DNA from: Sphagnum compactum
Taxonomy: Eukaryota
Reading direction: 5' to 3'
NCBI GenBank assembly: GCA_965153455.1
Contig: OZ234493.1
Span: forward strand, 434,001 to 498,000
Length of the DNA stretch: 64,000 nucleotides
Shown here: in pieces, positions 13,950-58,674 of the stretch
Layout: each line of letters opens with the position of its first letter
Numbering within the stretch: the first letter of the stretch is position 1
Program-made: the position numbers and the translations under genes
The notes under the pieces: generated by a model
The model's database searches: none
What the model was told of the DNA's origin: nothing
The model's input: the letters and a program-made list of their open reading frames with translations, nothing else

Positions 13950-16020
13950 TTTAGCAGTGTGCGAATTGGGGTTGGCTTTCAGCCAGAGCCTCAGCTCCCA
14001 TTTCGTTACACGACACTCAACATCAAACTAGGGTTTATGACAATGTCGCGCTTTGCAATTTCCTCCCGAAGGCTTATTGCCAAAAGTAGACTCTGCTGCA
14101 GCACCCATGCACTGCTGCAGTAGGTCAGCTAACCTGTCTGCCCCCAGATGCCCGATTGAGTCAACAACCCATAGGTTTCCAAGATTCGCTACTAAGGCAA
14201 GCTGATACTTTTCAGCTTTTGATTTATCATATTTGAACCTAGGTAAGAATTTTTTTGTTACAACTGTATGTTGTGGGTCAACAAAGCTACAATCGATGCT
14301 CAACCGTAGGTGTAACGGCTTGTGGTCAGAGTCTCCCCCCATCACGCAATAGCGGGTGTCGTCTATTATCACCTCGAGGTGTGTAGCATCTTGTTAAATT
14401 GCAGGTGAGCCAACAATATAATCGACAATGCTACGCCCCCCATTTGCCAAACAAGTGAACTCCCCTGATTCGTCACCAGGTGTCCGGTCGTTGAGGATGA
14501 GCAACCTAGCGTCACAACATAGGTCCAGGAACTCGCGACCCCAGCCGCCAACACTAGCGTCGCGGTTTTGACGCTTAGCCACAACATTTGGTTGCTTAGT
14601 TTGTGTGTGTTCAGGCGCCTGTAACAGTTCACAAAGGTCGCTAGTGTCGATGGTATTTGGTAACATTGCAGTTCGCGCATTAAAATCCCCTCCCAATAAT
14701 ACTATGCCCCCTAAAGTTTGAACTTCAGCAATATCTACTGCCAGGTTTTGGAACAAGGATTCGTTTTCGTGTTTGGAGCCGACAGGGGTAGCATACACCA
14801 CGCAAACATACAAGTCAGAGGCAGCACCCCTGCTGACCCGTAGCCATAGATAAAAATCGTGGCTTCCTTGTTTCCATTGTGACAAGTTTGGGCCGAGGTG
14901 GTTGCGAAAGTAAGCGACAACCCCCCCGCTATGTTTTATCGCTTTTATTCTTCCCGGTTGCACAGTGCGCGCTACCGCACGTGAGTCAAACCCTTCAATG
15001 TGTGGCAAATGTTGGCTTGAGAAGTGCCAGGTTTCAGTTAATAAGACAAGGTCAACATCTTGAAATAACTCTAGTATTTGCACCCCCATTTCTAGTTTAT
15101 TTACACCACCCTCGTGCATGTTCCATAATACTATGCATAGGTCTTTCTAGTCCCCGTGGCCTTAGATAGAGGAGGGTGGGCAAATTTGAGTGCCGTTGAC
15201 GAAGAGTTCGGCTGCACGCCAGAAGGCACACTTGCCTACCGCCTTGGCCTCCTTGAACAGCGGCCACCGCTGTAACTTGAGCGTCTGTTGCGCAGACGTG
15301 AAGTCCTCGTTTAGGCTAGTTTGGTCCCCGCCAGGCTTTTGCGCCTTCGCAGTGCGGCTTGGCGATCTTCGTTTGTTGTGAATTTGAGCAGCACCGCATC
15401 GGGGCGCGCACCCGTCGTCAAGGTGGAGGTTCGTGCGATCGCAGGCTGCTGCCGCATGGCGGTGATGACCTTGGCGCGCAACCTCATTTACCCTTGCAAC
15501 AGCTCTGTGTTGAGCCGTTGCACCAACTTTTTCTTGGTTTCACCCTCCTTGGCCTCAAAGCCCATGATGCGCAAGTTGAGCTTGCGTTCCTCTTATTTGG
15601 GCGCATCGGCCAGGGTCTCCACAGCCCGGTTGACCACCTAGCGCACGTTCTTAGCCATCACTGTGGTCCACTTGGGCTCTTTCGCAGAAGCAGCCTTCGT
15701 TGTGACAGCTGCAGCCGCCTCGCGCTCCATCAGTTGGTTGATCGCAAGGTTGCCAGCAGCCGCAAGAGATGCAATCTTTTCGATGGCCGCCTCCATCTTG
15801 GACAACCGCGCGTCAACAGGTGTGCTGTTGGTCTTGAGGCCCATGACTAGCCAGTGCCCAGTTAGGGCTGATTGGTATACCGCTAGGGGTGTATTGTCTA
15901 GAACATTGAGCCCAACGTTGTTGCAATACGTTTTGGCAGTGTCCTTCTTCAGTGTGAAAATGTCTAATGCTACATTGAAAGGACACCGCAGCATTGTGGC
16001 ATCGAGTGCCATCGCGGAGT
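13950..16020 (-). mobile_element. Non-LTR retrotransposon (LINE) fragment: disrupted ORF1 (~16011-15160) and ORF2 APE endonuclease (~15140-14030); no reverse transcriptase
   Basis: APE motifs LWN, LTETW, SGGV, VYA, GGDFNART, GDESGEFT, SIVDY, SDHKPL. ORF1 contains ERKLNLRIMGF and in-frame TAG/TAA stops. GC-rich island. Confidence 0.85.
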
Positions 16021-18045: not shown

Positions 18046-18156
18046 AGAGATAAGCTGAAATATGGAGTACATGATGGGACAAAAGAGCTCATTAGGTACT
18101 CATGCCATCATTCTCATATTGTGATGTTCACATGGGCCTCCTCTATTAGCTTATCA

Positions 18157-21100
18157 CTAGTTTGAACCCCGTGCCTAATACATTTCCAAAACCTCTCTAT
18201 ATACCACATTCCGCATGTATCCATCGGGACCCTGGCCGCTGAAAATCTTGATGTTTGCATTGCTTGTGACCCGTAAAATAACAACATACAGCTGACCATG
18301 GGAAAGATCGAAGACGGAAAATATACCCCAATGTTGTTCAATGTCTGACCTTGACTCTTGTTGATTGTCATCGCAAATGCCATTTGAACAGGAAATTGAC
18401 GACGACGCAAAACAAATTGCCAATCAGTCCCAGAGGGGGACATGATGATGCGGGGTATGAACACACGTTTGCCGACGTTATTTCCTGTGATGATCTCCAC
18501 TTCAATGACACGCTGACCCAATCTCTTGACAATCAACCTCGTACTATTGCACAATCCTATTGATTGACTGAGATTGCACAACAAAAGGATTGGCACGCCC
18601 ACTTTGAGTTCTAGCTTATGATTTGCAATACCGCTGAATTGCAAAGTGTTCAAAAATTCCATCGGATACAATGAATCCATTGAAATTCCTGTAGCAGCAC
18701 TTGCACCTTCTTCTGTCGGAGCCAAAGAATCTGCACACAGGTACGTGTGCAATTCTTCAGATAGCGATTCAAGAATTGCACTGTTGACTTCATCAATGTC
18801 AATATTTTTGGGACCCATAATGCTTCGTTGCATAAGATACATGGCATCTCCAGAGTGGTGTTGGTGATCTAGATAGATGGTTTGGATTAATCCTCTTAAG
18901 CTGCAAACTTTTGCTGGCAGCCTCATTTGGGACGGGAGCTTGATCCAGTCTGGATCGACACCTTCTTCTTCTGCAATGGCAGGAAGACTGTCGTCTCCAA
19001 CATTCAACACCCATTTGACAAACTTTCGCTGCTTTTCAGAATTGGCTGCCATGACTCGCATGTTGATATGAAGATGAAGAATTGTAACATGCTGCCAAAG
19101 ATGTGATCGAAGCAACGAAGCACTGACAATGTCTTTCTTGTCCTCCCTTCGAAACAATAGGCAGGATTTGTCAAAAATCCCCACCAAGGACCACGGTTTT
19201 CCCACCAAAGATCTTCTCGGTTGCTTGTGCATCATCCAATTGCATCAAATCACACAAGGTCCGATCAACAGCTTCGAAAGTTCGGCAATGCATCATTGGT
19301 GCCTCATCCCAAATGATCAGATCAGCTTTACACACCAATTCGGCCACTTTCATTTGTTGTGTGATGTTGAAAGTGAACTCATTGTGTGGATCAATCGAAA
19401 TCTTGAATCTTGAATGGGTAGTTCTGCCACCCAGAAGTAGCAAAGATGCAATTCCTGATGAGGCAACTATAAGCATGATTTTGCCTTGCCCTCGTAGACG
19501 GGACAAAAGCGTTGTCCAAACAAATGTTTTGCCGATTCCACCACTGCCATACACAAAGAACAGCTTGCCATCTTTGTTTGTCACGGCATTCAAAATAGTT
19601 TCGTATGCGTTACGCTAATCATCATTGAGCTTATCTTCTGCATCGTCTACATCTGTGGTCAATGAATGCTGATAATAAACCAGCTCTTTTTGGACCAATC
19701 GGTTTCCTCCATGAACAAAAGGGATGTAATTAGACTTGGGAAGTGTTGGAAAATCTTCCAGGTGATGTCTGTTGCGGATGAGAACCTGATCGATTTCATA
19801 CAATGCACGATCCTTTAGTGCATCCTCAGAAAGGGTAATAACTGGATCATCACGCTCGCGGCGTGTCATTGCCTTAATGTCATCATTCAAAGACTCCCAA
19901 TGTGCATCCTATAGTTATTTGGGATTCATCACCTCACAAAACATCAGCATGGAGGCAAACATGACATGTAGTTGTCATCCTAAGGCCCAAAGACCGACTT
20001 CTTCCAAGGCTTGATGCCATTCATTGTCGTCTGCAAGCAAACCCATTGCAATGCATGCATCTTTGAATGTGTCGTGCTCTGTGCCATCCACTGTCCGCAA
20101 ATGCTCATAGGATGTGGCACCTTTGACGCAGTTCAGCAGCATCCGCAAATAATAACGTTCACCTGATGTCGAGTGTGCATAATACATGCAACTAATGGCA
20201 AAGCCTCTCTTGCGCATTGTCCATCGCTTCAACTTCCGATTCCACACCCATTGCTGAAGGAATTGATCAAAGATAGGGCTTTGTGCAACTTTTGATTCTT
20301 GGTTTATTTTGAACCATTCCGTCAGCATCGTTCTGGAAATGGTTAATCGTGTTGCCACTTCCTGCACATCATCATCATCGTTGAACAGCACCATTTATTG
20401 ATTGGGCAAATGGTATTGCAAACGCTTAATGGCAGGAAACCCCTCATGCATATCAAACTTGAAGATGCGCCACACTACTTCCGATGTAGATACATAGCGA
20501 CAATCGAGATTTTTTTAAATTTCATCAGCTTCGACCACATTCCCTTCAGTGGCATTATTGCTCTAACGTGAGATCTCAATAGTTGCATGATCATGTCCTT
20601 TGTAAACGTACTTGAATAGATACTTGACTGGACAAATGTTGTTGTAGACCTCAACGTTGATGTGCGCATTGTATTTGGTTGACAAATAGACATTGTGTGG
20701 TACCACCCAATGATTGTCCAATTCAACGCCATGAACCAGAACTATGCGCCCTATATCTTTGCGTCGATAAATAGGACATTCGTTTACATCCGTCACCGTC
20801 TCAGATTCGAACTTGCGTGGATATTGTTTTTTGCATTTGCCATCTTCCATGCATGGGGCATTTGGAAACACAACTCCACATGGACTATGCATCATGCATG
20901 TGGAAACCGTCTCGTGTGCCAACCTATTTGTCTCTGGATTTGGAAATTCAGCACTGATCATGCGATCTACATCCTTGACTGTGTGTGGTTTGCAATCTTC
21001 GACAAAGAAGATGAGAATGTGTGCATGCGGTAGCCCACGTTTTTGAAACTCAATGACATAGATTCCCGCAATCATGCGTCCCAGAATATGCTTCTTGTGA

Positions 21101-23110
21101 ATGTCATTGATCAACTTCTTTAGCTTGATTTTGAGCACTTGGGTTACCAAATCCGATCGATCCTGAGGTTGTTGTTTGGGTAGCAACGCTCTCTTGATCT
21201 CAGGCCATTGGGGATTGCAAGTGAATATAACAAATGCATTTGGGCAGCGAGCCCCTCTGCAGATTGCCATCGCATCTTGATTATTCTGAACCATGTGACG
21301 TGGACCTCCTGTGAAAGAAGATGGCAAAATGATCCTTCTGTCCGATGGCAACAACGTGATTGTCATTTGCAATGATGGCGTCTTGAAGGTCTTGATAGAG
21401 ATCTGCACGAAGCTTTTTTTAATTCAGGTGCAGATACCTCAAGTGGTTTTGTTCGACAGCCGCATAAGCATCCACAATGTATTGTTGCCTCAATCGGTCA
21501 CCCCGAAGCAACGCAATGCCATTAGTGTCTCGATGTTGAAGTCGATAACCGTAAAATTTGGCCATTGTCACATTGCGATGCTTTGTATGATGCTCAGATT
21601 CTTTCGCATAATCTTCATCCAAATCCTCATTAGCATCTTATAAAACAACACCATTGAGCGGAATATTTGGATGCCATCCATCCTCACCGTAAGGAAATAG
21701 CAATAGATAATGTACAGCCATGTATCCCACATGTAGCTCGGAAATGTGCTGAAACGGGCCAGCTTGTTGAGCAACGACGATGTCACACTTATCTATAGCC
21801 TCAGAACCATCTCCTACCATCAATGCAGTGATTTCATCGGCCATCGACACATTGTATCGGTGGGCATCTTTTGTCGAGAGGCAATGAGACGCAATTTCAG
21901 ATCCGTGGGAGCCCCTTCTGTTGCCATCATATCCCTTGCCATTTTGAACACTTTGACATAGGGATTAATATTGTACATCATGGTTAACAACCGATCCAAC
22001 GTCATTGGATCAAGCAATGGCATAACGGCATGGCGGTTTTGACGTTCGCTCTCTGTATCATGAATGTACAGCTCTGCAAACTGTGGACGCTGTCCTTCGG
22101 CAGGACACAAGGATCCGATTTTGTGATAAAGCTCACCTTGAACTTTGTGATAAAGTACGGTCCAGTGCCTCTTGTTACCAACTCAACTTTGGCACCGAAC
22201 GAAGTGAATGCCAACACCGAATTGTATATGCGAATTTGATCTCGAAATTTGACGAGACTTCTCTCTTTGTTGGTTAAAAGAAGACGGTACTTTGCTCTTG
22301 CGATGTTCCAAGAAGATTCGGAAACTAAATTTTGCCATTTTCGCAACATAGAGAAAACTATGGGTTGTTGTTGCTCGACTTTGCCAATTGTTCTTAAATC
22401 CACATTTTCACATTGCAGAATCCACAGATTGTGTCCATTTCTCCACAATCCCATTGTGCCGGGGTTGACGCGTCTTTGTTTCCAAACAATTGCAACGCGT
22501 CATTGCCAAGAGAAGGTTGTGCACGTGCTGCTGCTTGTTGTACAGTTCGCCATTCTCAACGTAGATGATTACTTCGCTCTTGTGGCGTTTTAGATGGCCC
22601 GACTGACTCTACAAACAATTGCAATGCGTCATTGCCAAAAGAAGGTTATGCATGTGCTGCTGCTTCTTGTACGATTCGCCGTTCTCGATGCAGACGATTA
22701 CTTCGCTCTTATGGCATTTCAGATGGCTCGGTCGACTTTGCAAACAATTGCAATGCGTCATTGCCAAGAAATGTTGTGCACATGCTGTTGCTTGTTGTAT
22801 GGTTCGCCATTCTTGACGCAAACAATTACTTCGCTCTTGTGGTGTTTCAGATGGCCCGACCGATTCTATATGTTACCTGGCACACCGTTCTCTCTACAGG
22901 CAATTGCGACATTCATGTGCAAATTTCAACATGTCTTGATTGAATTCTTCTGGAGCATTAATGTGTGGAACAAGATTTTCCAAAAAGTTAGTTTGCTCAT
23001 CATTCTGCTGAGCTTCTTAGTGCTATTGAAGGGCTACCAAAGTTGCCAAAGCACTACCATGCTGCACAATGAGTGCACGCATACGTTCTTGTATGTCTTC
23101 GAGCATTGTG
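18157..23110 (-). mobile_element. Helitron with degenerate RepHel ORF; 3' end defined, 5' end not identified
   Basis: Rep motifs FTCNPQWPEI, IEFQKRGLPHAHILI (HUH), KYLFKYVYKG; PIF1 helicase motifs GSGGIGKT, IIWDEAPM, FGGKTVVLGGDF, FAMTINKSQGQT, HGQLYV. Minus-strand 3' end GGCACGGGGTTCAAACTAG|T at 18157. Many stops and frameshifts. Confidence 0.92.
22483..22860 (-). repeat. Three 129-bp (43-codon) tandem repeats in the RepHel N-terminal region
   Basis: caaacaattgcaa starts at 22483, 22612 and 22741. Confidence 0.9.
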
Positions 23111-24703: not shown

Positions 24704-26193
24704 ACAATTGTCGTCTACTACTATTACTACTCTTCTCTCCATAACCCCTGTTTCTTCTCCTAACCTTCCCCCCCCCAACTTTCTTCCCAGACAGTCACCT
24801 TCCTCCGGCGCCAAACCTGCCAACAAATGCAACCCCTGATTGTCAATGAATCTAATCAATTGACAAAGTAAAAGCGCCTAGTTGCAATGATAGTGTCACT
24901 GAGTCCTAGGGCACACAATACACAAAATCTGGTGCAGGAAGTACCATGAAGAAATAAGTTGAAGACATAAAGATTATAGTAGCCACTATATGTGATGCAC
25001 AATGCAAGACTGCTTAAATGTGCTGGCAGCCACAGGTCCCTGCTGAGTTTCAAAGTTTATAAAACTTGTGGGCCTCTAACAGCACTTTGTCTGCAGCATC
25101 ACACACTGATCCAACCATCTCTATTTGCCTCTGATGGTGAAATAACCAGCAAGCACAAAAACTTACATGCAGATTCCACTCATTAACGCCTACAAAGATG
25201 ATGAAGAATCTCCATTTGACACACGCCTGGAGAAGGGCATATGTGCTTATATACCATGGAGAAGGATTGGCATGTAAAACGATGAAAATATTGATTGAAA
25301 AAAAAATCAATCCCTCAAATTCCCTCAAATCAATCCCTCAAATAGGCATCTATTTCAAGTATTAATGCAGGAATCATGTCTAAGTATTCAGTGACGATAA
25401 GGCACATCTTAAATTTTGCAAAAACTATCACCTCATAAAATAGACAGGAATATTCTTCTGTCCCTATATAAAACTTGAAACTTCCACAACTTCTCGAAAT
25501 TGAAACCTGGGTTCACAATCCCCCTGCCCTTGATGCGTTTTGGTTTCCTTCTTCGCAATGGATTTGTCCATTTGTGTTAAAAAATGAAAGCAAAAAAACC
25601 TGAGTCACAACAGGGATGTCCAAACAGCTAAGATGGAAGAATTTAGAAACTAGAAATGTACCGACTATTACGCCTCCTGTAATTTTGCTTCATTTGGTCA
25701 CATGTCTCAAAAGCATTTTATGCTACCCTGTTTGGCCCTAACTACTGTGTTTTCTTTCCAAACATCAGATCTGACATTCAAGGGGGAAGTGGACAAATTC
25801 TTGTGTAAGAATTTGGTGTTGCAAAAACCAAACACACCAACCCCAAATACGGATTCCGTATTTTACACGGCCACACTGTAAAATTTGAAAGGACTTAGAA
25901 TTTAGAGCCTAATGGTTACTTTATAAAAAGTCGGGTGCAATGTACATTGGTGAAAATCATCAACCCAGTACCTAGTTATTGTAGTGGGAGGAGATGACAG
26001 GCATCCATCACTTAATCTAATGAGTCTAACCTCTCTCTTTAATTTCTGTAATTTCTTTCTTTGTTTCACAACATTGTTTCCACTACTTATGGAAAGTCCT
26101 CTAATGGCTCTCCAAAATGGGCTAGTTTCTTTGTTACTCCTGCAAAATTGGTGGCCCCATAAGGACAATTCTTCTTCACAAAAGCTGAGCTCT

Positions 26194-27558
26194 TCAGAAG
26201 AGTTTCCCAGCAGTCTTTTCCTCTGCTGAAAACGATGGCATTTGGTCACGCCGACCCAATTGCAGTGCAATCTTTTGGTGGTATAACTCTCCGTCCTCTC
26301 TCTGGCAAACCGGTATCCTCATCGTGCTTTGGATATCTTGCTCCATCTCTGCATAGTAACCTGCGCAGTTCCTGTACAGCTCAAATATCATTCCAATCTG
26401 CCCACCGTTGGAAAAGCTACTCACTAACACCGCTACTATACTGCAGGCTGCCGCCACTCCTGCCAACTGAATCCCGGGCCAGCATCCCAGCAAGCTCAGC
26501 ACAGCCGCAACCACTGCAAACACTGGAGCCGATATTGCTAGCCTTTTGTTAGGAGTCTCCTTGTTTCTGGCCGCCCGCACGTATTTTGCTATGTCCGATG
26601 TCTGCAGCTTATCTGCTGTTCGCTGGAGGTCCTTCGTGATGGCATCGGTCCAGCCATTCGTGTTGTTGGCTGGGATTTCCGTCTCGGTGAGGTCAGCAAC
26701 AGGGCCAAGTACGGAGGGTGCCACGACCTTGGGGAATTTCTCGAGGCCATTGGGCTTCAAGGGGAGAGGAAACCCGACGTCAAGAGCCTGCAGCCTGCCC
26801 ATCACCTCTTCCATGTACAGGTGTCCATCCTTGCGTAGGCGTGGATCGATCAACAAAGTGGTTTGGATGTCTCTTGCCAGCCGCTTATGGAAGCGAGACG
26901 CAGTGCGTTGCTCTTCAGCGAGCTGTGAGGGCTGATACTTGCTGGCCAAGTACATAAATCCAGCGGCACCGCCGTTGAGAAGGAAGGCGGCCACGGACAT
27001 GCTCAAAGAGGTACTCCCGACGCCGCTGTTCATGGCGGCCAGCATGGCCGCTGCGATGGTGGTCATGTTGACAGTCATGTGGCAGAGCTTGTTCCAGTTA
27101 TCTCGTTGGACACCGATGATGGCATGCATCTCGCTACGATCTTCGGCCGCTAAGGCGATGTTTCGCAACTGAGCCACCAGCATAAAATCCTCGACTCCAT
27201 TTCTATCAGTCCAGCCTTTGGTATTGCGCTGCGATGGAGATGTGGGGGAGCCGGGGCCTGCTGGATTGAATGAGATCCAGTCTTGGTCGACGGAGTTGAA
27301 CATGGTGTGTCTGGGTGTTGCGAGTGCACAAGAAGGCCTTAGCGACCTGTAATTACACCTGCGACGCTTTGATCCATGTCCAGACTTCCGAGAGATCCGA
27401 ATTGGCACTTGTATCAAACCCTGGGAACTACCTTTATGGGCAGTAGTAGGAGTAACACAATGGCTAGAGCCGTAAGCATCACCGACTGCAAATTGGTTTC
27501 CAGAAATGAATTGAGAGCCTAAATTACTGGCAGTAGAGAGGGCATTGCAGGCAGCCAT
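26194..27558 (-). CDS. Chloroplast_duf / petal formation-expressed family protein ('probable F-box protein At4g22030'-like), 454 aa, intronless, probable plastid transit peptide
   Basis: Family-typical motifs DRSEMHAIIGVQRDNWNKL, QPSQLAEEQR, LQALDVGFPLPL, NGW, GGQIGMIFELYRNCAGYY, REDGELYHQKIALQLGR, AGKLF*. Ser/Thr/Arg-rich N-terminus. ATG at 27558 (the ORF-track start 27591 is TTG). Confidence 0.9.
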   Translation of the reverse strand: MAACNALSTASNLGSQFISGNQFAVGDAYGSSHCVTPTTAHKGSSQGLIQVPIRISRKSGHGSKRRRCNYRSLRPSCALATPRHTMFNSVDQDWISFNPAGPGSPTSPSQRNTKGWTDRNGVEDFMLVAQLRNIALAAEDRSEMHAIIGVQRDNWNKLCHMTVNMTTIAAAMLAAMNSGVGSTSLSMSVAAFLLNGGAAGFMYLASKYQPSQLAEEQRTASRFHKRLARDIQTTLLIDPRLRKDGHLYMEEVMGRLQALDVGFPLPLKPNGLEKFPKVVAPSVLGPVADLTETEIPANNTNGWTDAITKDLQRTADKLQTSDIAKYVRAARNKETPNKRLAISAPVFAVVAAVLSLLGCWPGIQLAGVAAACSIVAVLVSSFSNGGQIGMIFELYRNCAGYYAEMEQDIQSTMRIPVCQREDGELYHQKIALQLGRRDQMPSFSAEEKTAGKLF

Positions 27559-27817
27559 ATTGTTTGTAATGGAAGAATCTAAGCCTCTCAACCAGAGAGC
27601 AGCAAGTGAGGTAAAATTCGAAAGAAAGGTTAGAAAATGATCTAAATTGCTGTGGATGAGGAACTAATTTGTTGCTGGAGAAGTGTTAGGATTGTAGCCT
27701 GCTGCAAGTGGTGGTGTTGAGGTAGAGTAAGCAAAGAGAGCAGTGAGAGAGGAAGTATGGACTTTGGAGAGATTAGAGTTTGAGAATGAGGAATGAAGTG
27801 GAGGGGGGAAGGAGAGC

Positions 27818-41880: not shown

Positions 41881-43107
41881 GTTCCTGCTTCTTTTGCCAC
41901 ATTGAACTTTCCGATATTACATCACTTACTGGACTGTGCTGTGAGAGGCTATTTGCATGATAATACTAATATGGTGTAACCAAAAAGATGGGCATACCAG
42001 TTTCCCCAAGAACACATTGACTACACAACAACAACACAGCATCAGCTTTATACTCAAAGCTCACAGCCTCAAGAATTTATCCGGCAAATTTCCAATGTTA
42101 CACAATCATGAAAGATGGATGTTCCATAGTTATCAGATCTACTAGATATAGGTCTACAAGGGTCAGACAGCTCCGATTTCATTCTCTTGAGCATCAACTG
42201 ACCACATTGGCACATCAGGAGTTTCCCTCAACACCAACTCACCCATAATAACAACAGTTGTAGCAGAATACCCCAATGTTACTTACACAACTGTCACACT
42301 GGAAAGTGCCACTGGAACCCTTACAAATAACAAACTACACTCCAAGAAATCACATGAAGCTCAATCTTAGAATACAGAAGTCCCCACTCGTTCTGCAGAA
42401 CAAACTCAGGAAGTTTGACAAATGCTGCCACAGTGCCCATACTGGAATAGTTCTACAGAACCCAGCTGAACACTTCAAGCACACATTCAGAGGTCTCAGA
42501 CTTCTGGGTAATCTCTTCCTTCATCCAAAACACTTAAAACCCCCATCACAATGCTCACTCACACATACTCCTTTGCCAATAGGGTCGCTCACGAAATCCC
42601 TAGTTCTTTCATCATTCCCCTTATCATTGACCTATGTCTGTAAAGCTACCCAGCTTCTTCCTAAGAGGTCTACAGCGCAGCGGAAAGAACAATAACAACC
42701 TCCCAGAAAGACAAACCAGATCCTTATTTCGGGCATTCATCCCTTCATCCCATTCTGAATGCCATCTATACAATGCCAAAAAAAAGAAAAACAACACAAA
42801 ACCAGCCAGCTCAATGCTTAGCTTCAAATTCACTGAGTCCTTTTGTAGTTGCTCTGCCTCCCTTGCTCCACAGCTCGCACAACTCTCCTCCATTCAAAAG
42901 TAAAACAACAAACATTATACTCATCCCTAGATTTTAGCACTCTATTCAAAATAAACCTATCATCACATCAAAGCTTCCTCCAAGAAACTTTTCTGTGAAT
43001 GACAATACGACAAAACAGAAGACGGTTTTCAGCGCCATGACAATAACAGAAATCAGGCTGTCCACACAGTAACCCTAAGAACTTCTCATCCATACTTTTC
43101 TGTTACA

Positions 43108-43757
43108 ATGGCTCAGACAGGCCTGTCCGGTGCCCCAGGATGTGAATTGATTTCTGGAAACCAATTTATGGAAGATGATTACAGCTCTGATCATGGCAAT
43201 ACTGTTCCAACCAGTACTCTTAATGGCACTTCAGAGGGGCTGCTCACAAAATTGCCTATCCGAATATCTACAAAATCTGTGCATGGATCAAAGCGCGGGA
43301 GATGTTACGGGTTCATAACGCCTTCTGCACTCGCCACACCGAGAGACACGACGTTCAGCTCGGTAGACAGCCAAGACTGGAATTCGTCCAATCCTGCAGT
43401 GGGTGCTACCCACTCTCCCGTGAGATCTCCATCGCGGTGCAATGCCAAAGGATGACTGACAGACTCGGGGTTGAGGATTCTACAGCAGTGGCTCAGCTTC
43501 GCAACATCGCCTTAGCGGCCGAAGATCGTAGCGAGACGCATGCGATCATCGGTGTCCAATGAGTTAACTGGAACAAGCACTGAAACTGCGCGGGTTAGTA
43601 TGCAGAGACGGAGCAAGATATCCAAAGCACGATGAGCGTACCTGTTTGCCAAAGAGAAGACGGAGAATCGAACCACCAAAAGATTGCACTGCAACTGGGT
43701 CGGCGTGACCAGATGCCATTGTTTTCATCGGAGGAAAAGACTGCTGGCAAGCTCTTC
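43108..43757 (+). pseudogene. Inverted pseudogene paralog of the 26194-27558 gene with a ~0.7-kb internal deletion
   Basis: LISGNQF...PIRISTKSVHGSKR...PSALATPR; 1-nt deletion at about 43454; CGA>TGA at 43560; NWNK joined directly to NCAG*YAE at about 43582; ends EEKTAGKLF. Confidence 0.92.
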
Positions 43758-51935: not shown

Positions 51936-53603
51936 ATTGGAACTTATCATAAAAATCTGATGATTTGAACAAAGAATTCCAGAATCTAGCGGATCAAATC
52001 CTCTGCATAGATCAAATCATATTTTTCAAACCAAAATTTAATCAAATTTCACCAACGAAACAAAGCTGAAGACATGATAAAAGATGAAGTTGGCAAGTTG
52101 TCTGATAACTATCTCAAGCACCATTTATTAAGCAGTTTAGTATATCATATGAGTAATCAGCAACCAAGTGATCCCTCTGTTAATCTTGCCATTAAGGTCT
52201 TGCCATTAACAAATTTTGTAATTTTCTTGACTGTGCATCATATGACATAATCTTTCAGTAATAGTCAAACACTTATAATAATGACCAAAATCTCTGTTAA
52301 AACTGAATTTTCTTCAAAATTGTAGAATCTGACACCGGACACCTTAATGTCAAGCCCCTGAACATCATGGCTGTATTTCCCAGCTCACCTTAACACACTA
52401 ATCTGGCTCGTAACCCAACACAGTGGACAGGGGCTTAAGCATTCCATAGTCAATAACAGGCAACTTGGCGAGCTATTACCCAATGAGCCTGGCCGGCTTG
52501 TTAGTGACCAGTGAGGTAACTAATAAGGTAATTCAATACTTATATTTGTGGCCACGACTACAAAAGAAGAGACAAAAGAAGAAACTACAATTCAAAAACG
52601 TTGGTACGTACTAGCTTTTTATCCCATCAAAAACAAATCAAAACCGTCCATTCAAATTCTGAAGGACCTCTGGGTCGAAACATGATGACAGTATCTTCGC
52701 TTCCGCCAAGAACCAACCGCAGCTGTCGATTTTAATTCCGACCTCGGTGTCGAAACCTGATGCCTGCCAGGTTGGCTCTTCGCTTAGACGTTCACGATCC
52801 GGTTGCACCCACCACCGCGCAGCGAGCACGCGAGAACGGAAGAACTCGGAAGACCTCGCCAACATGAACAACGATCTGATGATTGCCCAAAAATTGCTAA
52901 AAATTGGAAGAAAATCTTAGAAGCTCAAGCAGCTCATAAACTCGAAAATGCAAACAAGTATGCATGAATACGACACTAAGACAAAATTTTGAACAATTTC
53001 GGGGACGTTTAAGCTCTTGAATAATTAGATATTCTGCAGTACGCACCATTTGATACAAAACAAGTTTGCAGATCTGCTGCAGGAGCAATTTTCACTATTG
53101 CAGAAATTCATCCATAGGCAAACAATTCATGATCTACTGCAACTCTGATACACTACTAATTTGTAGTGAATCAAATACAATATTGACCCCGTAATGGGTA
53201 CCTGCAGGGAAGCAATTGGAACTTATGATGTAGGAATCGTGAGCAGTAGTGTGTTTCTAGTGTTAATAATGTCTCCGAGTACTTACTACAGGTCATGCTG
53301 TGATCTGAAGAACTCTAGTTTTGATGTAGTTTTGATCTCTAGTGAAGAACTAATCTTCCGTGGTCTACTTTGACGCTGAAGACTAATTAGCTTTTTCAAT
53401 GTGCAGTGATCACATGAAAGATTGTAGAGGTGTTGTAGGTTGGGAACTAGTCGTGTCGGGGGCGTTTCAACCGTTTGTCTTAGACGAGGGGCTCCGCCCG
53501 GGCTTGGAGGCTCTCCAGTAGGAGCTGATCTGAAGAGATCATCAATAGCTGGAGCCTCGAGCGCGGAGTCAATACCATCGAAAGCTTCTGGTTTTGGTGG
53601 AGA

Positions 53604-54992
53604 TCAAGAACTCGCGGAACTGATTGTGGTCGCGAGTACAGTCTGTCGTTTAGGTGGGAGCGGGCTTGGAGGGTGACCTGTGGGAGCTGGTCTAGACAGA
53701 TCAAGATCAGGAGCCTCGCGTTCCGGGAATATGGCGTCGAAAGATTCAGGATTTGGTGGAGCATTCGCGATCTGTCGTTTAGGTGGGAGCGGGCTTGGAG
53801 GGTGACCTGTAGGAGCTGGTCTAGACAAATCAAGATCAGGAGCCTCGCGTTCAAGAAATATATCATCTAAAGACTCAGGATTTGGTGGAGCATTCGTGAT
53901 CTGTCGTTTACGTGGGAGCGGGCTTGGAGGGTGACCTGTAGGAGCTGGTCTAGACAAATCAAGATCAGGAGCCTCGCGTTCAAGAAATATATCATCTAAA
54001 GATTCAGGATTTGGCGGAGCATTCGTGATCTGTCGTTTAGGTGGGAGCGGGCTTGGAGGGTGACCTGTAGGAGCTGGTCTAGACAGATCAAGATCAGGAG
54101 CCTCGCGTTCCGGGAATATGGCGTCGAAAGATTCAGGATTTGGTGGAGCATTCGCGATCTGTCGTTTAGGTGGGAGCGGGCTTGGAGGGTGACCTGTAGG
54201 AGCTGGTCTAGACAGATCAAGATCAGGAGCCTCGCGTTTCGGGAATATGGCGTCGAAAGATTCAGGATTTGGTGGAGCATTCGTGATCTGTCGTTTAGGT
54301 GGGCGCGGGCTTGGAGGGTGACCTGTAGGAGCTGGTCTAGACAGATCAAGATCAGGAGCCTCGCGTTCCAGGAATATGGTGTCGAAAGATTCAGAATTTC
54401 GTTTAGGTGGGAGCGGGCTTGGAGGGTGACCTGTAGGAGCTGGTCTAGACAGATCAAGATCAGGAGCCTCGCGTTTCGGGAATATGGCGTCGAAAGATTC
54501 AGGATTTGGTGGAGCATTCGTGATCTGTCGTTTAGGTGGGCGCGGGCTTGGAGGGTGACCTGTAGGAGCTGGTCTAGACAGATCAAGATCAGGAGCCTCG
54601 CGTTCCAGGAATATGGTGTCGAAAGATTCAGAATTTCGTTTAGGTGGGAGCGGGCTTGGAGGGTGACCTGTAGGAGCTGGTCTAGACAGATCAAGATCAG
54701 GAGCCTCGAGATCCGTGAGGATAGTATCGAAAGAGTACTGATGTTTTGGTGCAGCGGTCGTGATCATGGGCTGCGCGACCGTCTGTCGAAGAGCGGCGGG
54801 TGGGTGTGGAAGGTGACGAGTAGGAGCCGGTCTGGAGATATCTAGAGGAGTGGGTGGGCTTTGAGGGTGACGTGAAGGAGGCTTTCTAGTGTAGTCTATG
54901 ATCGAGCTCCATGACATTTCAACTTCTGGATCTGCAGCATCTTCCGTTGAGCTGACTTCAGTCTCGTAGTTGCCAGGAATCATTCTCCAAAA
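53604..54992 (-). CDS. Exon 2 of a putative secreted multi-repeat peptide precursor (462 aa + stop)
   Basis: Acceptor ctgtttctttgcag|TTT at 54993/54992, phase 0, in frame with exon 1; uninterrupted ORF with nine DLDLSRPAPTGHPPSP(L/R)P(P/R)KR units; TGA at 53606-53604. Confidence 0.85.
   Translation of the reverse strand, partial: FWRMIPGNYETEVSSTEDAADPEVEMSWSSIIDYTRKPPSRHPQSPPTPLDISRPAPTRHLPHPPAALRQTVAQPMITTAAPKHQYSFDTILTDLEAPDLDLSRPAPTGHPPSPLPPKRNSESFDTIFLEREAPDLDLSRPAPTGHPPSPRPPKRQITNAPPNPESFDAIFPKREAPDLDLSRPAPTGHPPSPLPPKRNSESFDTIFLEREAPDLDLSRPAPTGHPPSPRPPKRQITNAPPNPESFDAIFPKREAPDLDLSRPAPTGHPPSPLPPKRQIANAPPNPESFDAIFPEREAPDLDLSRPAPTGHPPSPLPPKRQITNAPPNPESLDDIFLEREAPDLDLSRPAPTGHPPSPLPRKRQITNAPPNPESLDDIFLEREAPDLDLSRPAPTGHPPSPLPPKRQIANAPPNPESFDAIFPEREAPDLDLSRPAPTGHPPSPLPPKRQTVLATTISSASS
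53646..54698 (-). repeat. Coding tandem array: 9 cores in units of 108 or 129 bp
   Basis: Unit lengths 36, 43, 36, 43, 43, 43, 43, 43 and 21 aa sum to 351 codons = 1053 bp; all length changes preserve frame. Confidence 0.95.
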
Positions 54993-55213
54993 CTGCAAAG
55001 AAACAGTGCCATGTGTGTACGTTATTGAGAGTACTAGAATGAACAAAAAGAATACGGATGTCTATCTATGCCCTACATGGTGAGGAACGAGAACCCATCC
55101 GGAGTCTAAGGCGAGTGCATGAAAGACGGACAAGACGCCAAATTTAGTCAAAGCATACAAGTCATGCGGTGCTGGTTAAGATTTGGGCCATTGTATACAG
55201 CAGCTGGACTTAC
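54993..55213 (-). other. Predicted 221-nt GT-AG intron of the precursor gene
   Basis: Donor TTG|GTAAGT at 55214/55213; pyrimidine-rich acceptor ending TTTGCAG at 54993; both phase 0. Confidence 0.8.
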
Positions 55214-55519
55214 CAAATCTATTCCATTCTGCATATTCGTAAAGAGGTCGTGGAGGACTTCAACTAGGGAAGACGAAGCGACAGAGGCCTTCAAAGTTCC
55301 AGCTGGAGCTTTGAATAGTCCTAGTGTAGTTGCGACTGCAGGCGGAGAAGGAGATTGGCGGTAAAGGAAACGGCGTGATGGAGGAGTGACACTGACGGGC
55401 GCGGCGATGCCGAGAGGGATATTTGACATTGCAAGAATTACGAGACATGAAGCCAATATTACTCGCAAGCTCATGATCTGCGCCTCCTTTGAATTCTCCC
55501 TTCTCAAATTTCTAGCCAT
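55214..55519 (-). CDS. Exon 1 of the putative peptide precursor (102 aa): signal peptide and pro-region
   Basis: MARNLRRENSKEAQI-MSLRVILASCLVILAMSNIPLGIAA|P shows basic n-region, hydrophobic h-region and small-residue cleavage site; alternative ATG at 55474; RRFL motif shortly after. Confidence 0.75.
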
Positions 55520-55560
55520 CTGTTACAACGGTTAATAAGCTCTCTTGAGACTGGAAGGCT

Positions 55561-55567
55561 TATATAA
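55561..55567 (-). promoter_or_regulatory. Putative TATA box of the precursor gene
   Basis: TATATAA 42 nt upstream of the first ATG and 87 nt upstream of the second. The region could instead be the end of a 5' UTR intron (taacag|ATG). Confidence 0.4.
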
Positions 55568-55997
55568 GTTCACACTAATTCCTTTCAATCGACGAATGGG
55601 CTCTGAAAATAAAATCTTTCTCGAGTAAAGCTCTTCTTGATTTTTTGATCAACTCTACAACCCTCTTAAATATCTAATCTTCTTCAAATCGTCCTGCAGC
55701 CTGCTGCAGCAGCACGATCTACACATGCAGCTGGTTCTAATTTGGGTTACAAGCCCCTTTTAGAAAATCACTGAAATCTGAACCCGCCCCTCAAAATCTC
55801 CCGGAGCTGCAGAAAACATACAAAGAAAGCTTCCTATTCCTAAGTTCGACCAGTAATCCGCTGACTTGGCTCCTCACAATAATTTCTTCAAATAGGAAAA
55901 CAATAGTTGCTGCTTACTGTTTCTTCCTCCTCTTTCTCCTCCTCCTCCTCTTCTTCTTCCTCTTCTTAACCCCAAACCTAGCAAATTATGTCTCGCT

Positions 55998-56165
55998 CAG
56001 TGACTCGCTCATTTCTCATCAACTCTCGACTTTTGCTTGTCAGTCAGTCGCTGATTTCTCATCAACTCTCGACCTTTGTTTGTCAGTGAGTAGCTCATTT
56101 CTCATCACCTCTCGACCTTTGCTTGTCAGTCAGTCCTCATTTCTCATCAACTCTCGACCTTTGTT
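55998..56165. repeat. Four 43-bp tandem repeats
   Basis: cagt.a.t.gct.atttctcatca.ctctcgac.tttg.ttgt starting at 55998, 56041, 56084 and 56127. Confidence 0.92.
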
Positions 56166-58674
56166 TTACGACGCATGAAAAAGAAAGAAAGAAAAACTAA
56201 CGAATGTTCTCGCCTCCTCCTCAGCGCAACTGCTGTGATTCACAGCCGCTGCAGAGACTTCACCACATCACGCAGTAAGAAAGACTGGCAGTCCGAGGAA
56301 GAAGAGTCTGTCGCCCCTAAAATTTGTATCAGGAGCCTGGACGTACTCTTGCCTGCAGCTCTTGCTCTGTACTCACGAGGTCTCTACGTCTCCGCCGGAG
56401 GGAATGAAGGCATTACCCAGGTCGACCCGGTGCAGGTGCGCCAGTGTTTGACAAGGTTTCCCGTACTCTTCTCGTCAAACTTTAAACATTAAAACGTGTC
56501 AGGGACGCGCTTTGACCCCGCTATTTTGTTGTTTTGTGAACTGGGCTCCCTTTCCACCGCCTTTTTCACGCGAAACGCTAAATAACCCCCTTCCCCCCCC
56601 CCCTCCCAATCGAGCTCTGTCCGGCGCCCTTTCTGGGCCTGACAGTGCAGCCCTGCGGAGAACCGTGTGGTTCTGCTGCACGGTTTGAATTTTTGACTGT
56701 CGGAGTTATTTCAATAGAAAAGAAACCAAATTCCTTTATGTGCTTGAGCCTATGTCAGTGGATAGTTCCATTTTGTGTTTGGGACGTTTCGATTTCGAAT
56801 TTGCTGGGCAGCAGCAGGCCAAGAAATTAATTCTAGCAGAACAGAGAGCTTTTGACATGTCCTTTTTTCTGAACAGGAGAACATGTAGAACCGTGCTGCT
56901 TGGTTCTATGCAGAACCAAGCAGGGCCGCAAAATGTGCAAGAAGACAAGACAAACATGCACCCGACAGAGCTCGATGGGAAGGGGCGGTGGGGGGGGGGG
57001 GGGGCGGGGGTTTTTAGGGTCTCGCCATTTTTATCCCCTCTTTTTTTTCCTTTTTTCTTCTCTGTTCTCAGTACCAATTCTTTTTTTGTGTGGACACTTT
57101 TAGCAAAATTATGAACATAAGGTTTAAGGCTTAACAAGTTTCTATCTGCAAATACCTCACCCACTACTCATTTTCAACACTAACTAATTCCTCGGAGGGT
57201 CAGCTGGAAAAAGAAACAATAAAACTACTAACAATTGCCAAAATTTTAGAAAATCAAAACCAGTTCAAAACCCAAGATAACCTTGAAACTTACTAGTGGA
57301 CTTTAGTGTACTTACAGACTATTGTTGAAATTTTGAGATTGCGGCTGTCACACCCCTTTATTTTAATATTTCAACAAGATTTGTCAAACATGGGTTGTAA
57401 GTACAATAGCAATTACACATTGAACTGTTGGTTTGCTCAGGATAACTAAGAAAACAAATCCATGGCGCCCCCATTCTCATTGCGTGAAATAAAGTTTCCA
57501 GGCCTACTCACAACCCTATTTTGCTGAACCTTGAAAACAGTCGTTGCTTTCTACCATTTCCATTGGTCTTTTAAAATTCTCACAAACCTTACAAAACCTA
57601 TTATTGTTAGTTCACTCAAGATATAACTGTGAAAAAAATTCAGACCGCCAAATCCAGCAGTTTCATTGGCTCATTATTTCTGCATGCCTACATACAAGTA
57701 TCAACACCCCCTTGTATATTTGTACACTAATTGTGTAAGGCTTGTCTATATATAGACAGGGTTTTAAATGAATATTCTGTGAAAAATATTTGACTTTAAG
57801 AAAAAACTCATCAACTGTTTTTAGGAAAAACACTTTTTTCAAGAAATTTTTTTTGTCACATTTTGGCATAGCTTTTTATTTTGGGGTAGCTTTTTATCAG
57901 CTTTTTTGTAGCTCAGACAGTTCTGGAGCAGATGTGTTGCCAATTAATGCAAAATCATTGATGCTATATTAGAAAACTGAAAAAGAGAAAGAAAAAAGCA
58001 CTGCTTTAAAGTTCTAGGTCATGAAATACTCTGACCAAAAGCCAGAAATTAATGTTAAATCCTTTAATTATTTGATCCTGTTTGGTATTGTTGGAAAGGG
58101 AGCAAAGAAATTCAATCACCTAAACTTTGAGAAATTTGTCACTTTACAAGATCAATTGGGAGGAGACGATTAGGCTTCTCAGTTCATGCAGGATACAATC
58201 TAGATTTGCTCATACTTTATTCTACTAGTTCTATGAAGTGTGCCCAGAAATTTCCAAGCGTATTTGGAATGCAACTTACTGCAATAAAATATCCCTCCAA
58301 AAAAGAGGAAAATATCACACCTACCAATCGGTAAATAGTAGGCTAAGTTGTGAAGATCCCCCTTCCACCTACTTATAACTTTGAACACCTTAACAAATGA
58401 AAGTTTTGGAGTGCACTCAATTGCCAATAGATGTTGGTATTTGCCCCTCCCACCGCCCATGCCTTGTCAGTTGCAAATAGGTGTCACTCACTGATAGGTA
58501 CCACCTAATACTTAAACAATCGGTAAGGGCCACACAGCTCACGGATAATGGTCCCAAAATGGTTGGCAAGAGTCAGCTACATTGGGCCTACGCTGGGCCC
58601 CAACACCCCTCTTCTTTTGGAAATGTCCCCACCATACATACGGCTTTACTACTGTACACTATCCCTCTCCCAGA

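Follow-up and report, generated by a model that had tools for sequence, protein, structure and literature searches.

Hydroxyproline-rich systemin (HypSys) and insect apidaecin-type precursors carry several Pro-rich peptides within one secreted precursor, HypSys being known only from a few angiosperm families. In apidaecin precursors, acidic EAEP-type spacers and basic processing sites lie between the peptides, and the apidaecins themselves are strongly cationic. Among known Pro-rich repeat proteins, the PPVYK-type repeat is a Lys-rich motif. Secreted Pro-rich tandem-repeat proteins have been delimited, in the criteria quoted from Newman & Cooper 2011 (PMC3149072), by tandem repeats with a Pro content of 20% or more, a repeat domain no shorter than 100 amino acids and a SignalP-predicted signal peptide, and extensins are characterized in one account by repeated Ser with 3–5 Pro, often accompanied by Tyr-X-Tyr (PMC4769139). 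For fungal Kex2-processed repeat proteins (KEPs), the steps outlined for a published pipeline comprise KR/RR cutting into at least four fragments, at least three repeats between sites and repeats covering at least 15% of the length, together with a predicted signal peptide and the absence of transmembrane segments by SignalP and TMHMM (Le Marquer et al. 2019, PMC6339444). The CLE motif is summarized as 12–13 amino acids with H-N or H-H at the end (as in RTVPSGPDPLHH and KEVPNGPNPLHN) and the CEP domain as 15 amino acids with a C-terminal GxGH (DFRPTNPGNSPGVGH), CEPs reportedly originating in gymnosperms according to the same source (PMC8462819).

The locus compared here with these systems lies on the minus strand of a 64,000-nucleotide stretch of Sphagnum compactum DNA (the window, whose numbering is used throughout). 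Coding exon 1 (55214..55519, 102 codons) and coding exon 2 (53604..54992, 462 codons followed by TGA at 53604–53606) are joined as 55519..55214 + 54992..53604 through a 221-nt phase-0 intron (54993..55213, GTAAGT..TTGCAG), giving a spliced product of 564 amino acids. The preliminary description had predicted this junction between two separate ORFs, and transcript data bear it out. A polyA RNA run (X22, 706 reads) from the organism of the same label gives an exon depth of 33–62 and a depth of 0 in the intron bins at 55020–55201, and the 54992/55214 junction is spanned by 30 reads with 21 different starts. First mates map nearly all to the plus strand, which in a stranded library indicates minus-strand RNA. 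A spliced metatranscriptome contig from a relative (L004) has the identical junction with the intron removed, and the length and ends of the intron are the same in L001 and L005. The gene is thus expressed as a polyadenylated minus-strand transcript with the predicted splicing. An antisense gene within the repeat array was considered and set aside, the antisense ORFs being repeat artefacts; opposite-strand RNA depth is 0–1.

Translation could begin at the ATG at 55519, which has the context TAACAGATGG with A at −3 and G at +4 and lies 6 nt downstream of an in-frame TAA; a second in-frame ATG (residue 16) is located at 55474. The first 39 residues (55403..55519, minus strand) resemble a signal peptide, as had been proposed, in their sequence features and hydropathy: a basic n-region with R19 is followed by a 12-residue hydrophobic run, VILASCLVILAM, and by a polar c-region, SNIPLGIAA|P, with small residues at the putative cleavage point. 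All of the four highest-scoring 19-residue and five highest-scoring 11-residue Kyte–Doolittle windows printed fall in this segment, and the hydropathy maximum is found only at residues 18–38. The sole Cys of the protein, residue 25, is inside the hydrophobic segment, so that the earlier statement that no Cys follows the signal region stands. Pro accounts for 20.6% of the whole protein, and the mature protein has four Tyr in total. Scans of the protein sequence found no N-glycosylation sequon, no SPPP, no YXY and no hydrophobic C-terminal GPI-type tail. A GPI anchor was considered and is unlikely because the C-terminus is not hydrophobic. Single-sequence AF2 runs gave a mean pLDDT of 45.1 without secondary structure for exon 2, and a mean of 49.8 for the full ortholog, with helices only at residues 11–32, within the signal-like segment, and at 85–106 and 131–134.

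The greater part of exon 2 is a nine-unit array that ends in a C-terminal tail, QTVLATTISSASS (53607..54737, minus strand). Two units are 36 residues long, six are 43 residues long and the last has 47. Each follows the layout ES(F/L)D.IF..(E/K)R, then EAPDLDLSRPAPTGHPPSP, then (L/R)P(P/R)KR, then QI(T/A)NAPPNP. The core string APDLDLSRPAPTGHPPSP is present nine times, preceded by ERE in six units, KRE in two and DLE in one, and followed by (L/R)P(P/R)KR, so that the nine identical Pro-rich cores and the flanks attributed to them are indeed there. Tandem Repeats Finder scores of 1327–1623 over 53642..54734 (periods of 129 and 108 nt, 90–100% matches) place the array far above chance. A 237-nt double unit at 54162..54708 is repeated 2.3 times at 100%; with tandem copies this close to perfect, the nine cores represent one recently amplified sequence rather than nine independent observations. 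The core varies at only two sites within the array, both synonymous, a point that speaks against an HRGP-type (hydroxyproline-rich glycoprotein) product. Upstream of the array are two old, diverged copies of the core, DYTRKPPSRHPQSP and LDISRPAPTRHLPHPP, followed by ..AALRQTV and a linker (54738..54896, minus strand). A decayed tenth unit (..EAPAIDDLFRSAPTGEPPSPGGAPRLRQTV..) lies just past the stop codon, in the 3′ untranslated region (53457..53603, minus strand). Readthrough into this unit was considered and is ruled out by the sequence of the relatives, in which it carries an in-frame TAG together with 3-nt and 2-nt deletions (L004 and L005) and, across the relatives' contigs, indels of 1, 2 and 3 nt.

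In composition, the protein falls within the published description of secreted Pro-rich tandem-repeat proteins: the unit has 27.9% Pro, the 377-residue array has 24.7% Pro and 47% Pro, Ala, Ser and Thr combined, and the sequence features of the N-terminus fit a signal peptide. It shares with the described Pro-rich repeat classes a signal-like N-terminus, a Pro-rich array, frequent sites of the Hyp-glycosylation type (nine PPSP and 42 [AST]P), disorder and fast change in copy number. We consider that there is about an even chance that the product is a lineage-restricted, secreted, intrinsically disordered Pro-rich tandem-repeat protein that acts mainly as an intact glycoprotein of the hydroxyproline-rich (HRGP) type. 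The protein is probably secreted and probably Hyp-O-glycosylated. The N-terminus would direct it into the endoplasmic reticulum, and PPSP, AP, TP and SP sites would be prolyl-hydroxylated and O-glycosylated; the product would remain largely intact outside the cell, and the composition, length and openness of the repeat would outweigh its exact sequence. The moss protein nevertheless differs from the described classes in having no sequence similarity to any of them and no SP3–5, Tyr cross-link motif or Lys-rich PPVYK-type repeat. With an SPPP count of 0 and its few Tyr, it is also unlike an extensin. The absence of canonical HRGP motifs (SPPP, YXY, a hydrophobic C-terminal GPI-type tail) counts against an HRGP-type protein. 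The moss unit is long (36 or 43 residues), with an acidic and hydrophobic head and a KR end; an ESFDAIF piece and a KR end in every unit are rarely met in structural proteins of the wall, whereas polyprotein precursors typically have them.

Pfam searches with exon 1, exon 2, the full ortholog and the protein P0002, a one-unit form that may be genuine or a collapsed assembly, identified no family: the single match, Plug_translocon (E 0.15), was below the cut-off. In this respect the preliminary description was right to call the family unnamed. Rfam had no match over the window. Among 1.84 billion representatives there were three matches at E ≤ 0.001, one of them real; P0003 (E 1.3e-4) and P0004 (E 6.9e-4) proved on inspection to be unrelated repeat proteins. 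In a collection of 5.8 billion proteins, exon 2 found nothing at near lengths and, at shorter lengths, only P0002, the same real match as before, and exon 1 found nothing at longer lengths. Two queries of the ESM Atlas reached best scores of 0.77 and 0.78, under the level of a lead. A tblastn search of the rest of the window for a paralog found none, its best outside match being 27 amino acids at 24760..24840 (E 0.005), and the string PAPTGHPPSP had no occurrence that we found in the literature. The 241 million metagenome records searched contained five loci (L001–L005), without exception from close relatives. In the searches made, the gene thus has no homologs beyond a few mosses that are close relatives of one another.

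The preliminary description had likened the core to CLE peptides at R1, P4, T5, G6 and P9, and to CEP peptides. CLE and CEP genes do have in common with this locus secreted precursors, sometimes multi-domain, with Pro/Hyp-containing motifs of 12–15 amino acids. The R, P, T, G and P of the unit correspond to five positions of the moss-type CLE consensus that had been used, and this number of identities was matched by 1119 of 20000 shuffled units; the five identities to the CEP consensus were matched by 2276 of 20000. Against individual peptides, identities were 4/12 for CLV3 (reached in 2998 of 5000 shuffles), 3/12 for MpCLE2 (4980 of 5000), 4/12 for CLE41 (2985 of 5000) and 4/15 for CEP1 (3693 of 5000). 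The best of 14 comparisons was that with CIF1, at 7/21 identities (104 of 5000 shuffles); in the remaining 13, the score was reached in at least 2005 of 5000. Likeness to CLE, CEP, RGF, PSY, CIF and IDA peptides is therefore at shuffle level only. Unlike CLE, the unit core R-P-A-P-T-G-H-P-P-S-P-L has no H or N at positions 11–12, as had been recognized from the outset, and thus no H-N or H-H end; unlike CEP, the unit contains no GxGH, and the terminal N looked for in the RGF and CIF comparison is also absent. Moreover, the CLE-like positions vary in orthologs (R/I, T/A and G/R/L): in L001, R is replaced by I in 3/3 units and T by A in 2/3, and in other units G is R or L. Judged by these comparisons, the gene product is not a CLE/CEP-type ligand precursor and the case for a hormone is weak; the repeats change too freely between close relatives to fit a conserved peptide hormone well.

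The orthologous loci are diverged by about 4%, and the comparisons span three lineages. Exon 1 was found in all five loci. Across the three lineages the reading frame and the stop codon are kept, the latter in L004 and L005 and unaltered in the relatives' contigs, and the indels inside the ORF (54, 108 and 129 nt) are all multiples of three. The relatives lack 54 nt at 54798..54851, in frame, which removes TPLDISRPAPTRHLPHPP. The number of units per array is nine in the window, six in L005, five in L004 and at least three in L001, and lineage-specific changes are common to neighbouring units. This makes the array a young coding minisatellite, with each lineage expanding, contracting and homogenizing it separately. 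Best-matching units differ between lineages at 4–18 of 129 nt; their summed pN/pS values are 0.71, 2.43 and 0.80, so that purifying selection on the units was not detected by this measure. Within the unit, variability is lowest in the core, with 7 of 19 columns variable versus 8 of 10 in the spacer head, an observation that counts against an HRGP-type protein. The earlier expectation that a peptide core should be better conserved than its spacers holds for the spacer head but not for the QI(T/A)NAPPNP piece, which is conserved about equally with the core (4 of 9 columns variable).

These data also bear on whether the locus could be a young transcript with no settled function, the long ORF of which would see little or no translation, its repeat being open because several frames of the unit are free of stops. 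Both strands of the array do carry other open frames (255 aa and 281 aa), and the homologs found are all from close relatives. Nucleotide divergence in exon 1 (3.6–4.6%) is similar to that in the intron (3.2–4.1%), with leader, exon 1 and intron together at 3.2–4.6%. The 5′ leader (55520..56327, minus strand) is at least 808 nt long, with no further intron seen; its RNA depth is about 30–47 and continuous from 55520 up to 55900, where the stretch examined ends, and L004, which is spliced and cDNA-type, is collinear with the window from 56327 to 55214 and down to 53002. The leader contains 11 upstream ATGs, among them the starts of two in-frame uORFs at 55819 (19 codons) and 55726 (23 codons), and that of L004 has 19 in 922 nt. 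Translation efficiency is uncertain because the leader is so long and rich in upstream ATGs, a feature that likewise counts against an HRGP-type product. However, the 11 upstream ATGs are fewer than the 18.0 expected from base composition, and the three lineages all retain exon 1 with its start context, the phase-0 junction and the stop codon. Indels in the ORF preserve the frame, whereas those after the stop codon do not, and exon 1 has a pN/pS of 0.41–0.60 between lineages. A transcript of this kind is accordingly an improbable description of the locus. The 3′ untranslated region (53002..53603, minus strand) is at least 600 nt long, as defined by RNA depth (34–59 down to 53200, the end of the stretch examined) and by collinearity with L004.

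The KR that ends each unit raises the question of a polyprotein, as had been proposed, which we regard as unlikely, though less so than an untranslated transcript. Once the signal peptide was removed, a protease acting at basic sites would cut after KR (or R) in a moss-lineage precursor with a rapidly expanding array of five to nine units, freeing many Hyp-rich peptides of 36–43 residues, roughly 40, or shorter, with a role in defence or signalling; such a precursor would most resemble the fungal KEPs and the multi-copy precursors of Pro-rich peptides. KR closes 9/9 units in the window, 6/6 in L005 and 5/5 in L004, as well as the half-unit before the array in L004 and L005, and the R of the site is invariant in 23/23 units examined. 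KR-EAP, found in two units, has the KR-EA pattern known from Kex2/Ste13 sites, the putative peptide core is the best-kept block of the unit, and nine copies would raise the peptide dose. With 11 KR and one RR beyond residue 39 and a nine-unit array that covers 377 of 564 residues, the protein passes the sequence steps of the KEP pipeline as outlined (PMC6339444). It shares with fungal KEPs a signal-type N-terminus, at least three near-identical KR-closed units and a copy number that varies between relatives.

Against such processing, K is replaced by M in 2/3 of the units seen in L001. This MR variant (AAA to ATG) is the sole form in the one RNA contig of the relatives that covers that position (depth 784.5) and makes up 7.9 of a depth of 26.4 in a DNA run of another labelled organism. 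The upstream boundary varies among units (ER, KR, EG, EH and DL), and because it is not conserved, only whole fragments of 36–43 residues would have defined ends. The units are without detectable purifying selection, and the best-conserved part of the protein is outside the repeats. Plant subtilases are assigned to subfamily S8A and kexins to S8B in the classification quoted (PMC6713707), so that neither the kexin nor the retention of dibasic sites expected of a KEP is matched by the plant host and the MR lineage. The long Pro-rich units differ from fungal KEPs as well. The likeness to apidaecins and HypSys concerns the layout of the precursor, and the moss unit, with six acidic versus four basic residues, is unlike the apidaecins. 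Cleavage at KR, taken as a putative site, is possible. If the polyprotein did exist, the fast change of its units would point to an arms race and not to an absence of function, and the invariant first copy, headed by DY, might be a separate tyrosine-sulfated peptide.

That copy begins at the end of the most conserved segment of the gene, 39 acidic, non-repeat residues, FWRMIPGNYETEV...SSIIDYTRKPP (54876..54992, minus strand), which differ between lineages at 0/117, 1/117 and 1/117 nucleotides, in contrast to about 4% elsewhere; the segment is far better conserved than core or spacer. DY occurs once in the protein (residues 135–136), ending the acidic segment and heading the oldest copy, whereas the array units have DL in 9/9 cases. 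By inspection, the unit core is matched at 8/14 positions by the DY copy, which has Y where the core has L. The functional element might then be this segment with the single copy DYTRKPP[ST].HP.SP, a sulfated, Hyp-containing peptide in the style of PSY, RGF or CIF, and the downstream DL-type repeats, as paralogous copies that lack Tyr and have expanded, would themselves contribute little function. Plant tyrosylprotein sulfotransferase is described as requiring Asp before Tyr and as being helped by acidic flanks, and DY is stated to be present in all known sulfated peptides but one (PMC6698702); here, the single DY is preceded by an acidic stretch. Yet likeness to PSY1, RGF1, MpRGF and CIF1 is at chance, most of the CIF1 matches are lost in L001 or L005, and the C-terminal N or HN is absent. 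The acidic segment may also be constrained at the RNA level, beside the splice acceptor, rather than as a peptide, because its synonymous sites are conserved too. A sulfated peptide is therefore highly improbable, the least likely of the readings considered.

Taken as an intact glycoprotein, the product would be one more lineage-specific secreted Pro-rich repeat protein. The usefulness of the locus lies mainly in a gene model that is clean, has RNA support and is split by ORF calling of the prokaryote style, and in an example of turnover in a coding minisatellite at a sequence divergence of about 4%. The hope that it might be informative about peptide-hormone evolution is not borne out for CLE or CEP hormones. 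Lineage-specific peptide families described so far come mostly from angiosperms, in the statement of one preprint (bioRxiv 10.1101/2024.05.13.593875). The gene would matter more if unit-length peptides occurred: a polyprotein in the style of the Kex2-processed repeat proteins would be unexpected in a bryophyte and would represent a plant counterpart of those fungal precursors.

The two-exon repeat gene on the minus strand is confirmed to be real and expressed. From a start codon at 55519 (ATG; an in-frame TAA precedes it by 6 nt), the first ORF piece runs for 102 codons (55519..55214) to GAT TTG, followed by GTAAGT (55214/55213). A 221-nt intron (55213..54993, with TTGCAG as its 3' end at 54993) separates it from a second piece of 462 codons (54992..53604), which closes with TGA at 53606-53604. 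Scripted joining by coordinates yields a product of 564 residues, 20.6% of them proline and only one, residue 25, a cysteine.

Among 23 listed public runs, 20 contain the stretch or part of it (six RNA), under the labels of four coded organisms, 'moss metagenome' and 'plant metagenome'. Reads from four of the 23 were aligned on 2701 bases around the gene. The polyA RNA run X22, whose species label is that of the best DNA-holding run, contributed 706 reads, with a depth of 33–62 over both exons against 0 in bins 55020-55201 of the intron; 54992 is connected to 55214 by thirty reads with 21 different starts, which omit the 221 nt in between (plus-strand ends CT..AC). First mates lie essentially all on the plus strand, opposite-orientation depth is 0–1, and coverage extends beyond both ends of the stretch examined. 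In the metatranscriptome runs X15 and X16, contigs connect 54993 with 55217 at depth 90.9, with two non-matching letters in between; we take this to be the splice 54992/55214. The two runs also contain an unspliced contig of depth 24. Exon depth, the empty intron and the junction reads of X22 establish transcription and splicing at 55214/54992, so the refuting condition of a missing transcript or junction, named in the preliminary description, does not apply. At 54239, 53589, 55755-55756 and 55816 the RNA run has letters other than the window's (38–61 of 38–61 reads each); one such difference, AAA to GAA, turns KRE of unit 5 into ERE. These fixed differences reflect either a strain difference or the placement of ERE-unit reads on the unit 5 copy.

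The product contains APDLDLSRPAPTGHPPSP nine times, preceded by ERE in six units, KRE in two and DLE in one, and followed by (L/R)P(P/R)KR; on re-examination of the sequence, the earlier account of a spliced 564-residue protein with nine identical Pro-rich cores and KR ends proved accurate. Tandem Repeats Finder places the array at 53642..54734, with periods of 129 and 108 nt (90–100% matches, scores up to 1623), and within it lie 2.3 copies of a 237-nt double unit that are 100% identical. The nine cores are one sequence amplified recently, and their identity is therefore uninformative on selection. Two other ORFs span the array (53996-54845), of 255 aa on the minus strand in another frame and 281 aa on the plus strand, kept open solely by the absence of stop codons from the unit in those frames; opposite-orientation RNA depth across the array region is 0–1.

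Pfam gives no match for the exon 2 product (E up to 1) or the full ortholog (E up to 5). A HMMER search of 1.84 billion representatives gave three matches at E <= 0.001, the only relative being P0002, a 111-aa Logan protein (E 6e-44). A word-indexed collection of 5.8 billion contained no match of similar or greater length and, among shorter proteins, P0002 only; the ESM Atlas search gave no lead, and no paralog was found elsewhere in the window. P0002, from two contigs (longest 3891 nt), reads as the first unit fused directly to the C-terminal tail, with a single repeat unit; it could be genuine, as a one-unit allele or species, or result from collapse of the array in assembly. Metagenome contigs were pattern-scanned with the window protein aligned to P0002, and five loci, L001–L005, came out of 93 pattern matches. 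L005 is collinear with the window across about 9 kb and is thus the orthologous locus; L001 to L003 form a single lineage with contigs that stop within the array; and L004 is a spliced contig of 2647 nt, the intron absent exactly at the predicted junction, with an uninterrupted ORF of 374 codons and the same ATG and stop as the window's.

The surroundings are plant nuclear DNA with many mobile elements, including minus-strand Helitron/PIF1 pieces (18117-21423; Helitron_like_N E 6e-38, Pif1_2B_dom E 1e-18, PIF1 E 2e-8) and a minus-strand LINE-type endonuclease ORF (14397-15146; Exo_endo_phos E 5e-10). A 489-aa single-ORF gene on the same strand (26197-27663) matches PF14476 (Chloroplast_duf, 'Petal formation-expressed'; E 3e-83), and a plus-strand ORF of 150 aa (43003-43455), by eye like its N-terminal part and without a Pfam match, could be the fragment of a paralog. 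The repeat gene has no other recognisable gene within about 9 kb.

The gene's frame is conserved, with the same start, junction and stop in all lineages. ORF-internal indels measure 54, 108 and 129 nt, and exon 1 has a pN/pS of 0.41–0.60 between lineages. This conservation argues against a weakly translated young transcript, a distinctly improbable reading despite the long leader with its upstream ATGs (11 across 808 nt for the window, 19 across 922 nt for L004). The window's leader also contains a 43-nt tandem repeat (55997-56163; 3.9 copies, 88% matches), with short TCC/TCCTCT-type repeats upstream of it at 55921-55965. Beyond the TGA, a decayed tenth unit continues in the same frame (53457-53603, minus strand); L004 and L005 have an in-frame TAG and 3-nt and 2-nt deletions there, and relatives' contigs carry 1–3-nt indels, which marks the stop as ancestral and the unit as now 3' UTR.

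The best-conserved piece of the gene is not the repeat; it is the acidic non-repeat segment encoded by the first 117 nt of exon 2 (54876-54992, minus strand), ending in ..SSIIDYTRKPP. Three lineages differ there at 0, 1 and 1 positions, synonymous sites included, where our arithmetic from the local rate predicts about 4–5 per pair; divergence among the window, L001 and L005 is 4.2–4.5% in the leader, 3.2–4.1% in the intron and 3.6–4.6% in exon 1. The near-invariance could be protein constraint or RNA-level constraint beside the splice acceptor. A function centred on this segment as a sulfated DY peptide would accord with the TPST requirement for DY with acidic flanks, as excerpted from PMC6698702, and is highly improbable, similarity lending it no support.

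Comparison of 23 units (nine from the window, six from L005, five from L004 and three from L001) showed variable columns at 8/10 positions of the spacer head, 7/19 of the core, 4/5 of (L)PPKR and 4/9 of QI(T/A)NAPPNP; AP-D, L, PAP, HPPSP and the R of KR are invariant. The sequence of both L001 array units is EAPDVDLSIPAPAGHPPSPLPPMR, which means loss of the leading R as well as the dibasic K in L001, and the same variants recur in relatives' contigs, high-depth RNA contigs included. Best-matching units between lineages have summed pN/pS values of 0.71, 2.43 and 0.80, from small counts and non-independent pairs, and the units show no purifying selection. Lineage-specific changes are common to neighbouring units, and arrays, of 9, 6, 5 and at least 3 units, are homogenised within lineages. 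A polyprotein cleaved at the KR unit ends is unlikely: KR closes every unit in two of three lineages, its R is invariant, two KR-EAP sites occur and the protein formally complies with the pipeline for fungal Kex2-processed repeat proteins as excerpted from PMC6339444, but one lineage has MR in place of KR, the upstream unit boundary is unconserved, unit evolution is near-neutral, and plant subtilases are S8A in the excerpt of PMC6713707.

Reference mature peptides from Table 1 of PMC8462819 were compared with the unit by best ungapped identity against shuffles of the same unit. Scores against CLV3, MpCLE2, CEP1, CLE41, IDA, MpIDA1, PSY1, RGF1, MpRGF and CIF1 were all ordinary, each being reached by at least 2942 of 5000 shuffles, and, with the consensus strings of the preliminary description, 5.6% of shuffles attained the five identities to CLE and 11.4% the five to CEP. 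The unit lacks the defining HN/HH end of CLE and GxGH end of CEP, as well as the terminal N defining RGF and CIF, and the CLE-/CEP-like core positions vary among the 23 units (R/I, T/A, G/R/L). The gene is real and expressed, its reading as a hormone precursor is supported in part only, and the CLE/CEP link is unsupported. The DY segment shares 7 of 21 positions with CIF1, a score that 104 of 5000 shuffles also attain; across 14 comparisons this lacks significance, and the orthologs have largely lost the matches.

Sequence features at the N terminus fit a cleaved signal peptide, for which it is a candidate. The remainder is predicted to be disordered: AF2 gave a mean pLDDT of 45.1 without secondary structure for the exon 2 product, and of 49.8 for the full-length ortholog, where helices are limited to the signal helix, one at 85-106 and a four-residue one at 131-134, weak evidence since both were single-sequence runs. 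Proline makes up 24.7% of the array and P+A+S+T together 47%, there are 9 PPSP and 42 [AST]P sites, and the sequence has neither an N-glycosylation sequon nor a Cys after the signal; this composition falls within the operational definition of secreted Pro-rich tandem-repeat proteins excerpted from PMC3149072. Frame, periodicity and composition are kept while sequence drifts and copy number changes, a pattern that suits a bulk extracellular protein better than a ligand. We put at about even the chance that the product is such a bulk, probably Hyp-O-glycosylated extracellular protein; the gene itself is an orphan in the broad class of secreted Pro-rich repeat proteins.
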